Assembly (NCBI GenBank): GCA_964016885.1
Contig: OZ024741.1
Location: 3,968,001 to 4,032,000, forward strand
DNA from: Eledone cirrhosa
Lineage: Eukaryota
Length of the DNA: 64,000 nucleotides
Direction of reading: 5' to 3'
Under the pieces are notes generated by a model. That model was not told where the DNA came from and did no database searches. It saw only the letters and a list, made by a program, of their open reading frames with translations. This document shows, one piece after another, positions 11,911 through 43,996 of the stretch. Position numbers and translations under genes: made by a program. Every line of letters begins with the position of its first letter. Within the stretch, counting starts at the first letter, position 1.

Positions 11911-12350
11911 AATGAGAAATCTGGAGAATTTGGACACTTGTTTCAGGGTTCCGACACCCTGTTACTGCCATTTTATAGGCCTCGGTGGATGGGGGTCTTT
12001 TTCAGTGACAAGATGTGGGATTTGAACTGAGAACACACAGGAAGGAAACAGCAACACATCACATCCAGTGCTCGAGCAGTCCGCCAATGACCTTTGACTG
12101 GTACTTTATTTATAGATTCCCAAATATATAAAAGGCCAAGTTGACCTGAACAGAATTTGATATGAGATGGTAAAGAACCGGAAGATATGTCACATGTATA
12201 TATATGTATATGTGTTACTGTATATATATATGTATTAATAAAAGGAATTCCAACTTTGTCTGATTTACTCGTTTTATTTACAATCCTTTAAAATTTATAA
12301 TGGTATTAGAATGAAATAGTATGGTAGAATATTAAATGTTAAGTGTTAAT

Positions 12351-12389
12351 TGAACAAGTACTTTCATGCTTTCGCAATCTTCAGGTTCA
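12351..12389 (-). ncRNA. Minimal type I hammerhead ribozyme (mirror copy)
   Basis: Exact reverse complement of 12475-12513. Confidence 0.8.
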
Positions 12390-12474
12390 TAATGTGTGGT
12401 GACAGTCAAGTTTGCAATTTTCAACTGTGTTTTCAACAGTTGAAAATTGCAAACTTGACTGTCACCACACAATC

Positions 12475-12513
12475 TGAACCTGAAGATTGCGAAAGCATGA
12501 AAGTACTTGTTCA
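12475..12513 (+). ncRNA. Minimal type I hammerhead ribozyme
   Basis: UGAAC-CUGAAGA-uUGC GAAA GCAu-GAAA-GUAC-U-U-GUUCA. Stem I UGAAC/GUUCA, stem II with a GAAA tetraloop, palindromic stem III AGUACU. Confidence 0.8.
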
Positions 12514-12632
12514 ATTAACACTTAACATTTAATATTCTACCATACTATTTCATTCTAATACCATTATAAATTTTAAAGGATTGTAAATAAAACAAGTAAA
12601 TCAGACAAAGTTGGAATTCCTTTTATTAATAC

Positions 12633-12699
<67 letters not shown>

Positions 12700-12842
12700 T
12701 GTGTGTGTTACTGTATATGTGTGTGTGTATGTGTATGCATATATGTGTATGTATATACACACACATTCATATGAATGTGTGTGTATATGTGTGTATATGT
12801 GTATGTATATATGTGTATATATGAATGTGTATGTGTGTGTAT

Positions 12843-13397
12843 GTCTTGGTTGTCCACCGTGAACGATGGTGACATCTTCTTTAATTTAGTTCCCGTCTGC
12901 CGTGGGCACACGATAAAAGAGAAACCTGTGGGGGGCATCCAGTGCAGGGTGACGGTCCCACTCACTGGGCCGCAGAAGCCAGAATCCGGTGGTACTGAGG
13001 ACCGTCATGACCAGGGACTTCCTTGGCTGCAGTGGATGGCCACGACGTCTGTAGTGTCTTGCTCTACACCGCTTGCTGTCGCCGCCTTCGTGGCGGTGGG
13101 GACGATGTTGTCCTCCTCCACTCACTCCGCCGGGTCCAGTTTTCGCATGCAGGGGCAGGCATCCCCTATCTAACTCACCCGGGGGTTTCAGACCCATCCG
13201 GCTACCCTCAACCTGGTTTGGCCCGCCAGCCAAGACAGTTTACCAGGGTGTGGCCGCTGTCGCATGCTACAGCTTCTTGGGGCCACAGGTGAGCGCTGAG
13301 TGTCAGGTGGGACCCAATGCAGGACAACCTGTCTTGAAAATGTCATGGCTCCCCCTACCCCCCTACAGAGGTACATGCCCCTCCCTGACACCCCAGG
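12843..13397 (-). mobile_element. Probable non-autonomous RTE-derived element (GC-rich 5' UTR plus short 3' end)
   Basis: GC-rich island between microsatellites; gccatccactgcagccaaggaag-type segment resembling RTE/BovB-group 5' UTRs; ends in an (AC)n-like tail. Recognised from memory only. Confidence 0.45.
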
Positions 13398-13464
13398 CAT
13401 ATATACACGTATATACATACACATACATATGTATATGTGTATATAGATATTTACACACTTTTGG

Positions 13465-13648
13465 ATGGCCGTTGACTCTTATCAGTTCTTCCGCTCTTTG
13501 TCAGGTTTTGTTCTTTGTCCTACAGGGTGTCCAAAATCCCCCTCCTCACCAACATGGTGGGTTACCGGTTTAGTCGCCGAAGACCTGACCATGCGACAGG
13601 TTGTATTGGGTTACATGTTACCAGTAGCACTCAAGAGTGACCCGACAT
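13465..13648 (-). mobile_element. Interspersed repeat, RTE 5'-end-like (copy 1 of 3)
   Basis: Homologous to 17216-17405 (inverted) and 41293-41480 (same orientation): gtttagtcgcc..acctgaccatg..ggttacatgttaccagta. Confidence 0.7.
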
Positions 13649-40847: not shown

Positions 40848-40936
40848 GGCGTGTGGCTGAGTGGTTAGAGAATTCGATTCCCAGACCGAGCGATGCGTTA
40901 TGTCTTTCAGCAACACATTTTATTTTACGTTGCTCC
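40848..40936 (+). mobile_element. tRNA-derived SINE relic
   Basis: Box A-like tggctgagtggttag, box B-like gaattcgattccc, then a cagcaacacattttattttacgttgctcc core. Confidence 0.5.
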
Positions 40937-41292
40937 TTCTACCTGGAGTTGCGACCGATAGATAGTATTAGCAATTGGAAAGACCAATGGAAACATTGTT
41001 TCCTCGGTCCGATTTGACGGAAGTCGGTCGTTCCTTTTTTAACCCTGGCACATCACAGCTCTCCCCAGCACCGCAGTGCTTTTCAGTGAAATGTCGTCTG
41101 CAATTAATTCAGAGTCTAAGAAGTTCCTGTGAGTTAATTCAATTGTAGTGGTCGTGGCTTGCAGAGAAACACGTCCACCTTTCAAACAAAACTAACAGGA
41201 AAAGCAGATGACCCAACATAGGTCAGGGCGACCAGTAACTGATTCATCATCAGGTTCCCCCCCCCCCCCCCCCCCCTAATAAACTTTTGGAT

Positions 41293-41480
41293 AGCCGTTG
41301 TCTCTTATGAGTTCCTCCGCCCTTTGATGGGTTTCGGTTTTCCTCCATCAGGATGTCCCAAAAGCCACCTCATTCTCCAAGCTAGCTTGGTGGGGTTGTC
41401 AGGTTAGTCGCCGACAACCTGACCATGTGACATAGTATGCTGGTTACATGTTACCAGTATCACACGAGAGCAACCTAGCA
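41293..41480 (-). mobile_element. Interspersed repeat, RTE 5'-end-like (third copy)
   Basis: Homologous to 13465-13648 and 17216-17405. Confidence 0.65.
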
Positions 41481-42371
41481 CATACATACATACATATAGA
41501 TAGTCAGACAGACAGATAGAAAAACAGACAGACAGATAGAGAAAGAGAGGTGCATGCGTATTTACTCTCTATACATGCGGATTACAATACATATATAGTG
41601 ACATGTATATATATATATATATATATATATAGCGGCGATGAATTAGTTTTGCGAGGTTTTTTTATATGAAATCGTGTGTCGAAACAAATATTGTTATACT
41701 TGGGGAGGGTCATATTTGTGTAATATTGCCAGAATTAATAACAGAACACACTCACTGTATGTTTGGTTTTCGCTTCTCGCTTCTGTGTCTTTTATATCGG
41801 TAATCTAACTTACTCGGTCCTCAATGTTGCCATTGACTGACCGACGGTCAAAAATAATACAGATACAATATAGACACAAACACATATATATAGTTTATCA
41901 TAAATCTTTCGTTGCACATCTGCAACATCGTCAGTGGTGCTATATTTTCCTCCTGTTGTATTGTATGTCTACGCCATTTTTATTCAGTCTGTCTATATAT
42001 TTATTTATTTATTTGCTTATTTGTTTATTTTATTTTGTCTTCTTTGCGCATGCGTTTGCGTGTGTGTATAGTGTTTTGTTTGCTGTGTGATGGGTGACTA
42101 GTGTGTGTTTATGTGCTTGTTGTTATTGTGCTTGTGTATGTATGTATTTATTTATTTATTTATTTTATTTTATTTACTTATTTATACTTCTCTTAGATCA
42201 GTGTTGTTTGTTTGGGTGTTGTTGCTATTCCATTCATTCTTTCTGTTTAGTCTTGGTCTTCTAATTTCTATTTCACTGGCCTCTCTGATTTGCCTATCTG
42301 CTGGGTCATTTCTATGTTTAGATATTATTCTAATTTCAATGTTGTATATGTTACCGTCATGTTGTTGTCTA

Positions 42372-43477
42372 ACAAGTTTGATTTAGAACGTAGCACGATG
42401 AAAAGCATCCAGCAGATAGCTAATTCCATACACCAGAGTATAACTGTAACTATCGACTTCCCTTCCAAACACCTTAACAATAGACTACCTGTATTAGACA
42501 CAGAACTCTGGATTAACACTATAGACGAGAGAGCCCAAATTCTCCACTCACACTATGCTAAACCCATGGCCTCCAAATACCTGATACTCAAAAACTCAGC
42601 AATGTCCAGTAGTGCTAAGTTTAATATTCTGATCGCAGATTTGGTACGAGTGATGAAGAATGTGTCCCGCATGTGCGACCCAACATAAATGGAAAGACAC
42701 ATCCAACACTTCATCAACCGCATGCAGTTCTCTGGCTACAACCAAAGAGACAGAGTCAGAGTATGCGAAGGAGCCATGGAGAAGTATAAGACCCTCATAG
42801 AACTGGACATGAAAGGAATTTGCCCATTATACAGGAGCAAATCATGGAATAGCTTAGATAGGGCTAGACATAAGATAGGGAAAGCCACCTCATGGTACGA
42901 CAACCAGAGATACCAGAGTGTCATGTTTGTGGACGCTACCCCTGGAGGGAAATTAGCTAACCAGTGTAGAAAGGCCCTGAGAAAGACCCACTTAAAAATA
43001 AAGGTGGTAGAAAAGCCAGGAACCACCATAAAATCCCTGATCAGCAAAACCTACCCTTTTAAGAAAACCCACTGTACCAATAGGAAATGTATCATATGTA
43101 AGGTGAACCCCCGGATAAACTGTAAAACTAGAAACGCAGTCTATAGCATAAGATGTACAGAGGGTACTTGTAGAAACATGACAACAACATACATAGGTGA
43201 GACAGCTCGTAGCATAGGTGAAAGGTTAGATCAACACTGGGGGGAACTAAAAGGACGAAAAAACGGGTCAGTACTATACGAACATGCTAGACAACAACAT
43301 GACGGTAACATAGACAACATAGAAATTAGAATAATATCTAAACATAGAAATGACCCAGCAGATAGGCAAATCAGAGAGGCCAGTGAAATAGAAATTAGAA
43401 GACCAAGACTAAACAGAAAGAATGAATGGAATAGCAACAACACCCAAACAAACAACACTGACCTAAGAGAAGTATAA
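42372..43477 (+). pseudogene. PLE RT C-terminus/thumb plus GIY-YIG endonuclease, one in-frame stop at 42686-42688
   Basis: LPVLDTEL, HYAKPM, MQFSGY, VMFVDATPGG, CTNRKCIIC, AVYSIRC..C..YIGETARSIGERLDQH, RQIREA, LNRKNEW. Confidence 0.88.
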
Positions 43478-43708
43478 ATAAGTAAATAAAATAAAATAAA
43501 TAAATAAATAAATACATACACAATCACAATAACAACAAGCACATAAACACACACTAGTCACCCATCACACAGCAAACAAAACACTATACACACACGCAAA
43601 CGCATGCGCAAAGAAGACAAAATAAAATAAACAAACAAGCAAATAAATATATAGACAGACTGAATAAAAATGGCGTAGACATACAATACAACAGGAGGAA
43701 AATATAAC

Positions 43709-43750
43709 ACCACTGACGATGTTGCAGATGTGCAACGAAAGATTTATGAT
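43709..43750 (+). ncRNA. Type I hammerhead, slightly degenerate (mirror at 41897-41938, minus strand)
   Basis: CUGACGA-uGUUGCA GAUG UGCAAC-GAAA-GAUU-U-A; 6-bp stem II; stem I ACCA/UGAU with one mismatch. Confidence 0.7.
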
Positions 43751-43950
43751 AAACTATATATATGTGTTTGTGTCTATATTGTATCTGTATTATTTTTGAC
43801 CGTCGGTCAGTCAATGGCAACATTGTGACCGGGTAAGTTAGATTACCGATATAAAAGACACAGAAGCGAGAAGCGAAAACCAACCAAACAGTGAGTGTGT
43901 TCTGTTATTAATTCTGGCAATATTACACAAATATGACCCTCCCCAAGTAT

Positions 43951-43996
<46 letters not shown>

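Follow-up and report, generated by a model that had tools for sequence, protein, structure and literature searches.

Inverted Penelope-like insertions in the window

The DNA analysed here, 64,000 nucleotides of Eledone cirrhosa (contig OZ024741.1, positions 3,968,001 to 4,032,000; hereafter the window), holds four inverted structures, numbered E1 to E4 in window order. The reading we favour, with somewhat more belief than doubt, is that they are insertions of endonuclease (EN)-bearing Penelope-like elements (PLEs) of the inverted pseudo-long terminal repeat (pLTR) type, each made by two primings. The observation is real and largely known, with one useful new lead, a stem-loop pair in the relatives of E3.

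An earlier note on this DNA had described four inverted dimers from four families without evident common sequence, with hammerheads on the minus strand in left arms and on the plus strand in right arms, and with outer 3' ends at (TA)n. Each of these points stood. Self-comparison of the window recovered inverted pairs at 12221–12643, 31272–32175, 32248–38724 and 41632–43958, and alignment of arm against arm showed the same dimers. Similarity among the four families at the DNA level was not significant (six pairs; best pair 9/200 shuffles), and a motif search bore out the strands of the hammerheads. (TA)n is reached by seven of the eight outer ends, or by six of seven if the run common to E2 right and E3 left is counted once; the expectation, to be read knowing that the elements were chosen after inspection, is that 0.53% of positions lie at most 4 nt from one of 35 runs. 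An inverted, 5'-truncated partner lies directly at the 5' end in all four structures, and an optional tail at one end is present in two of them (E3 and E4). The suggested fold-back, with ends meeting in the centre, was upheld for the head-to-head orientation of all four; mirror centres occur solely in E1 (7-nt spacer) and E3 (2-nt loop). The structures are as follows.

E1: 12221–12643, no strand; near-perfect palindrome of a 200-bp hammerhead-bearing end, spacer of 7 nt at 12429–12435
E2 left arm: 31272–31723, minus strand; some 1.06 units of a non-coding repeat of 417 bp
E2 right arm: 31721–32172, plus strand; about 1.1 units in another permutation, reaching (TA)n at 32168–32249
E3 left arm: 32248–35456, minus strand; 5'-truncated PLE assigned to the Hydra clade, open reverse transcriptase (RT)–EN frame, stop at 33850, no tail
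E3 centre: 35425–35490, no strand; perfect 32-bp hairpin, loop of 2 nt at 35457–35458
E3 right arm: 35459–38724, plus strand; same element as the left arm, open reading frame to 37033, 90-bp tail, (TA)n at 38725–38762
E3 tail: 38635–38724, plus strand; right arm only
Hydra-clade stem-loop box, compensated form (ACTC...GTC GAGT GCTTT): 38640–38664, plus strand; in the E3 tail
E4 left arm: 41632–42378, minus strand; 747-bp 3' end, tail of 54–56 bp at 41632–41687, (TA)n at 41606–41631
E4 right arm: 42379–43958, plus strand; 5'-truncated PLE with RT thumb and GIY-YIG, one in-frame stop at 42686, no tail, (TA)n at 43955–43991

Differences between the arms

Two primings are supported by sequence confined to one arm. 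The two arms of E2 are 1.1-mers of one 417-bp unit in different permutations, with an arm-specific segment of 144 nt. In E3, 32 bp of the left arm (35395–35426, 30 bp from the apex) are absent from the right arm, which for its part carries the 90-bp tail. The E4 arms measure 747 and about 1580 bp, the tail of 54–56 bp being found on the left only and about 890 bp on the right only. One arm had been said to reach 60–90 bp further at the 3' terminus in both coding elements; the tails exist, with lengths of 90 bp (E3) and 54–56 bp (E4) that do not fit that range.

Arm divergence varies, as had been claimed: two substitutions in 3175 bases plus one 1-bp indel in E3, three in 208 aligned bases in E1, and about 10 substitutions and three indels in about 690 common bases in E4. 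These figures do not amount to a clock, E2 being a mosaic with two substitutions in about 141 nt against 24/319 elsewhere, nearly all of them distal (Fisher p 0.003–0.016); arm divergence therefore does not date E2.

The centres were read from assembled sequence, and the near identity of the E3 arms, together with the known trouble that such structures cause in assemblies (PMC8557442), would suit a library or assembly fold-back artefact, at least for this young palindrome. We give that explanation very little credence. Neither of the E3 arms could have given rise to the other, the short arm terminates at a clade-conserved position, and the arms of E1, E2 and E4 have diverged. The sequence beyond the (TA)n runs is not mirrored either, mirrored flanks scoring just 17–29 and lying within simple repeats. 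Arm-specific sequence in E2, E3 and E4 thus argues against an assembly artefact. Among 15 sequencing runs listed, part of the E3 right arm was found in 11 (best share 0.50), with no RNA run among those listed as containing it.

At 32168–32249 and 43955–43991 a single (TA)n run separates the 3' ends of two different, stacked elements, and the same is seen in two loci of metagenomic relatives of E3 (L031 at 2932, L077 at 2444). Such stacks at common runs, and the close and distant segments that make up E2 (same Fisher test), would be in keeping with two insertions at separate times, or with later rearrangement by inverted duplication, deletion or gene conversion. This history seems improbable to us, since the stacks meet 3' to 3' across (TA)n while the centres join 5' ends without (TA)n, the E3 arms differ by so little, and the flanks past the runs are unmirrored.

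Hammerhead motifs

Hammerheads were sought with a descriptor of the type I motif (stem I of at least 4 bp, stem II of at least 2 bp). It matched exactly six sites in the window, one in each arm of E1, E2 and E3 and always with a palindromic helix III, against a background mean of 0.075 and maximum of 1 in 40 resamples. The two motifs in E4 were accepted only with stem I relaxed to at least 2 bp.

E1 left type I hammerhead: 12351–12389, minus strand; 5-bp stem I, 3-bp stem II with a GAAA loop, helix III containing the palindrome GTAC, UU at the cleavage site (descriptor)
E1 right hammerhead: 12475–12513, plus strand; anatomy as E1 left (descriptor)
E2 left canonical type I hammerhead: 31364–31406, minus strand; 6-bp stem I, 4-bp stem II, CTAG palindrome (descriptor)
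E2 right hammerhead: 31922–31964, plus strand; anatomy as E2 left (descriptor, fold)
E3 left hammerhead: 32292–32357, minus strand; 8-bp stem I, stem II long and interrupted, TATATA palindrome (descriptor)
E3 right hammerhead: 38525–38590, plus strand (descriptor)
E4 left hammerhead-like motif: 41896–41939, minus strand; intact core and 6-bp stem II, stem I just 2 bp
E4 right hammerhead-like motif: 43708–43751, plus strand; same defect as E4 left (stem I 2 bp)

The anatomy of these motifs fits the PLE and canonical metazoan hammerheads of PMC4209133. An Rfam covariance search of the window gave no hammerhead among 101 matches at E <= 1, the matches being of microRNA type only and lying on simple repeats, and the calls in E1–E4 therefore rest on the descriptor. 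Folding z-scores of the monomers were not significant for the four hammerheads (−0.94 to 0.25), as expected because hammerheads of this kind are thought to act as dimers. A fifth hammerhead-like core lies at 43992–44075 on the minus strand, with a GUC site and with neither stem I nor an inverted partner; its 3' end adjoins the (TA)n run of E4, and an RTE-like fragment comes next.

E1 and E2, two short hammerhead-bearing units

E1 lies between (TA)n runs at 12221–12231 and 12633–12656, and both its ends terminate at the identical base, without a tail. At this length it could be either a passenger or what is left of an autonomous element. The earlier note had both autonomous elements and ribozyme-only passengers using the architecture; the non-coding E2 does show it, and E1 is not long enough to prove non-autonomous.

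The E2 arms overlap by 3 nt at the centre, in a 14-nt palindrome at 31719–31732. The 417-bp unit has a GC content of 0.38 and is non-coding, its longest ATG-led frame comprising 97 codons. Retrozymes are defined by at least two consecutive head-to-tail units; each E2 arm has about 1.1 units and one hammerhead, which falls short of this, and by its sequence E2 can be called retrozyme-like only. A link of E2 to the Hydra clade through GAGCA-like words was considered and rejected, these words having neither the 5' stem arm nor a motif match. GGTAAGT words resembling splice donors occur in the pLTR regions of E2 (31884–31892) and E4 (43830–43840) and bring to mind the intron in the pLTR of Penelope. 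The outer left end of E2 adjoins a 34-bp satellite instead of (TA)n. This satellite fills 18352–31271 with about 380 copies and has an internal inverted block at about 25334–26050.

E3 and E4, two coding elements

The frame of E3 encodes a 5'-truncated RT–GIY-YIG protein with 44 homologues. Its linker has the form CxCX5C (CNCRDRSKC) ahead of a GIY-YIG-type core, and its EN shows CDLC before the conserved E and CKH after the conserved N (CxxC, CxH), without CCHH. A CxCX5C linker and the absence of CCHH mark the Hydra clade (PMC8557442). E3 also has the hammerhead in the pLTR and the insertion into (TA)n that are traits of this clade; the N-terminal region that carries RWK and DKT, two further motifs of the clade, was removed by its 5' truncation, and both are present in its relatives. 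Judged by these motifs, E3 is a Hydra-clade PLE, with an AT-rich 3' region of 1.5 kb. An older Hydra-clade RT fragment, 72% identical to E3, lies at 59158–59800 on the minus strand, with its 5' end at (TA)n and no inverted partner.

The GIY-YIG of E4 has a CX4CxxC linker (CTNRKCIIC) and CCHH as C-x4-C and H-x4-H, the CX2-5CxxC linker and CCHH being traits of canonical C-terminal EN+ PLEs of the Nematis/Neptune type. By eye, the linker length fits the Nematis rows, not the Neptune rows, of supplementary Fig. S2 of PMC8557442, and on this linker motif E4 resembles a PLE with a Nematis-type endonuclease. An ATG at 41713 in the left arm opens 27 codons running to the end. Hairpins at the E4 centre reach 5 bp, which is chance level. 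Named homologues of the two PLE proteins of the window come from octopuses only (41% and 62% identity). Pfam named none of the four PLE frames and gave one weak match, to DUF6451, on the RTE-like fragment. Among viral contigs there were 24 pattern matches, of which none was confirmed.

Stem-loop boxes in the Hydra clade

Relatives of E3 were collected with a profile built from E3 plus 18 of the 44 homologues, which gave 326 matches in metagenome contigs; the best 80 of these yielded 79 loci (L001–L079) in 62 families. In these Hydra-clade pLTRs, stem-loops of the form GCTC...GAGCACT stand about 110 and about 50 nt before the first conserved codons. The first GAGCAC box was found 45–80 nt after the hammerhead in 34/35 evaluable families and the second 105–150 nt after it in 21/30, and the reverse word occurred in the first box window in none. 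A GCTC arm 8–26 nt upstream of GAGC gives a 4-bp stem in 62/64 box windows, with a variable loop of 8–26 nt. Compensated stem pairs are found in the E3 box and in both boxes of L070.

The boxes mark where copies end. There were 13 junction rows, from which three reverse-read 5' junctions and one simple repeat were excluded; the (TA)n junction lay 0–11 nt before the stem in all eight measured of the remaining nine, with 0–6 AT bases in common with the run, and in the ninth (L077, minus strand) it lay 5 nt before by eye. Within the window, the box at 38640–38664 is the sole match of a generalised motif that was widened after inspection (0/20000 resamples). The short arm of E3 terminates 5 nt before this compensated box, so that the tail has the appearance of a stretch running from one marked start site to the other.

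The stem-loop pair is the one addition not found in print. The signal did not appear in the literature searched, which was covered largely by titles and the starts of abstracts, subscription papers and Repbase reports being outside its scope; the box word has 70 occurrences in the supplement of PMC8557442, and the two inspected both lay inside sequences. A 120-bp piece of the window flanked by two (TA)n runs (59866–59987) carries on its minus strand (at 59920) a Hydra-type box with one mismatch, and on its plus strand a GAAAC...GUC hairpin.

A head-to-head inverted piece was present at the 5' end in 8/79 loci (self-BLAST, tblastn and inspection by eye), with offsets from none to more than 1 kb. 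The contigs are short-read metagenome assemblies, some of them collapsed, and most of the other loci show no 5' junction.

Loci with a head-to-head 5' junction: L008, L013, L025, L034, L042, L045, L065, L073

The inverted arm terminates at (TA)n in two of these, at site 1 in L034 and at site 2 in L025. In L021, (TA)n separates tandem copies. As far as these contigs tell, the architecture is common in the relatives and not obligatory.

Proposed mechanism and its alternatives

Two primings could proceed as follows. The GIY-YIG domain would cut both strands within (TA)n, and each 3'-OH would base-pair with a few AT-rich positions in the RNA of the element and, from this internal start site, prime its own cDNA. 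In the Hydra clade there would be two such sites, just 5' of the two GCTC/GAGC stem-loops, whose position is observed and whose function is proposed; use of site 2 instead of site 1 would leave a tail. The two cDNAs would extend toward each other and then stop. Because they are of the same sense they cannot anneal directly; microhomology, or a brief fold-back extension of one 3' end, would be the only way to join them, and the centre would come out as a mirror (E1, E3) or offset (E2, E4). Snap-back end joining, a repair route already established (PMC5728401), involves a short fold-back of this kind, which would provide the complementary strand and explain both the hairpin and the 32-bp gap of E3 in one step. 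For E2, a non-coding tandem hammerhead RNA would have been integrated in the same geometry. In vitro, a Poseidon PLE cuts and extends both strands, two internal starts bound its tail, and a dimer is predicted (PMC11167929).

More tentatively, and at rather less than even confidence, we propose that a PLE enzyme acting as a dimer opens (TA)n and, from start sites marked by the two conserved RNA stem-loops, primes both ends simultaneously, and that host snap-back joining seals the centre; this would explain the inverted pLTR, the one-sided tail and mobilisation of retrozyme RNA in trans.

Several observations weigh against two primings. Near-symmetric centres in two of four structures exceed what independent stops of two cDNAs would produce, unless fold-back and trimming happen often. 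In E1, which lacks a tail, neither arm has sequence of its own, and pure snap-back fits it equally well; the stem-loop box was not detected in E1, E2 or E4. The peptide of the E4 tail compared weakly with the N-termini of relatives (26–31/1000 shuffles in 3/10 comparisons, one of them out of register). Among the relatives, the inverted pieces in short-read contigs could be assembly chimeras, and in 5/79 loci a sense pLTR copy comes directly after (TA)n, 14–34 nt before the box.

Loci with a sense copy directly after (TA)n: L021, L023, L053, L062, L075

The 5' ends of such sense copies at box sites fit cutting there as well as priming. They coincide in some cases with 3'-end sites, which would suit a possible but rather unlikely alternative, in which one cDNA, or an antisense RNA as proposed by Arkhipova in 2013, self-primes into a long hairpin or inverted dimer that the endonuclease resolves at the stem-loop sites and joins to (TA)n. 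The perfect hairpin centres of E1 and E3 speak for it, palindromes at inverted junctions have been interpreted as self-priming (PMC3846280), and EN-mediated resolution has been named as the origin of tails (PMC8557442). However, a single template pass cannot give E2 or E4, and E3 would need a later 32-bp deletion. A box loop of 8–26 nt suits RNA or a single-strand hairpin better than a fixed double-strand site, and the tail is connected in vitro with the sites where RT starts (PMC11167929). Whole-arm snap-back is excluded for E2 and E4, because each arm has sequence absent from the other, requires a later deletion for E3 and may hold for E1. Of the systematic mechanism that the earlier note had suggested, with either both break ends primed or the cDNA snapping back, the priming of both ends fits best, and the snap-back of whole arms is the part lost for E2 and E4.

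Comparison with known systems

The shared architecture does not amount to a new class of mechanism: it matches the described inverted pLTR with tail and (TA)n bias, and the sense copies (5/79) make it not obligatory. The inverted 5'-truncated partner, the one-end tail and the (TA)n targets are already in print (Craig 2021, PMC8557442), as are palindromes at head-to-head junctions with self-priming as their proposed cause (Arkhipova 2013, PMC3846280). Penelope-13_HM, of the Hydra clade, is tabulated as having an inverted, 5'-truncated copy at the 5' end and as preferring (TA)n, and the origin of inverted and tailed PLE ends is called an open question (PMC8557442). The inverted-pLTR EN+ PLEs of these two papers are like E1–E4 in the head-to-head 5'-truncated copy, junction palindromes, single tail and microsatellite targets. 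Their printed tails of 30–40 bp are shorter than those of E4 (54–56 bp) and E3 (90 bp), and their short inverted pLTRs differ from the mirror of 3.2 kb per arm in E3. The Hydra clade shares with E3 the linker, the lack of CCHH, CxxC/CxH, the hammerhead and the (TA)n flanks; in the sections of PMC8557442 covered, 3'-marking stem-loop boxes were not found, whereas E3 has its compensated box beside the long AT-rich 3' region.

PAc, the Poseidon of Anolis (Frangieh et al. 2024, PMC11167929), resembles our case in that both strands are cut and extended, targets are AT-rich and two RT starts bound the tail, which lies inside the start of the open reading frame, as the open frame of E4 suggests for its own. 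That work leaves the inverted partner underived, and the Hydra-clade sites differ in lying upstream of the start codon, with short AT homology to the target. Metazoan non-LTR retrozymes (Cervera and de la Pena 2020, PMC7229834; bioRxiv 10.64898/2026.07.22.740005) are like E2 with its non-coding 417 bp, 38% GC, more than unit length and canonical type I hammerhead. E2 has head-to-head 1.1-mers in place of the head-to-tail array of retrozymes, and a term search of the same two sources did not find inverted insertions.

Little is gained from the architecture itself. The conserved stem-loop pair offers a definite cis-acting signal from which the ends of Hydra-clade copies can be predicted, and in vitro assays of an existing type would allow it to be mutated and compensated. 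As E2 hints, PLE enzymes may integrate retrozyme-like RNAs, and an enzyme that primes both break ends on a chosen RNA would be of interest for gene-insertion tools.

In twin priming of L1, the 3'-OH of the second strand primes a second cDNA, and the 5' ends meet centrally. The inverted part is upstream sequence there, whereas E1–E4 repeat the 3' end, which would need a tandem RNA or two RNAs. A literature search for twin priming with Penelope gave nothing on the topic, judged by the listing.

Other features of the window

The window is animal DNA with many satellites and microsatellites. A 61-bp satellite at 1–7565 has about 124 copies of 90% identity and lies beside an RT fragment of the LINE (long interspersed nuclear element) type. 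At 60061–61690, an internally duplicated element lies between (TA)n runs; the descriptor finds no hammerhead in it. Long frames on the minus strand at 44881–45675 and 48149–51274, one of 1041 codons, probably encode a host membrane protein, in which cysteine-containing domains are repeated that look sushi/CUB-like by eye.

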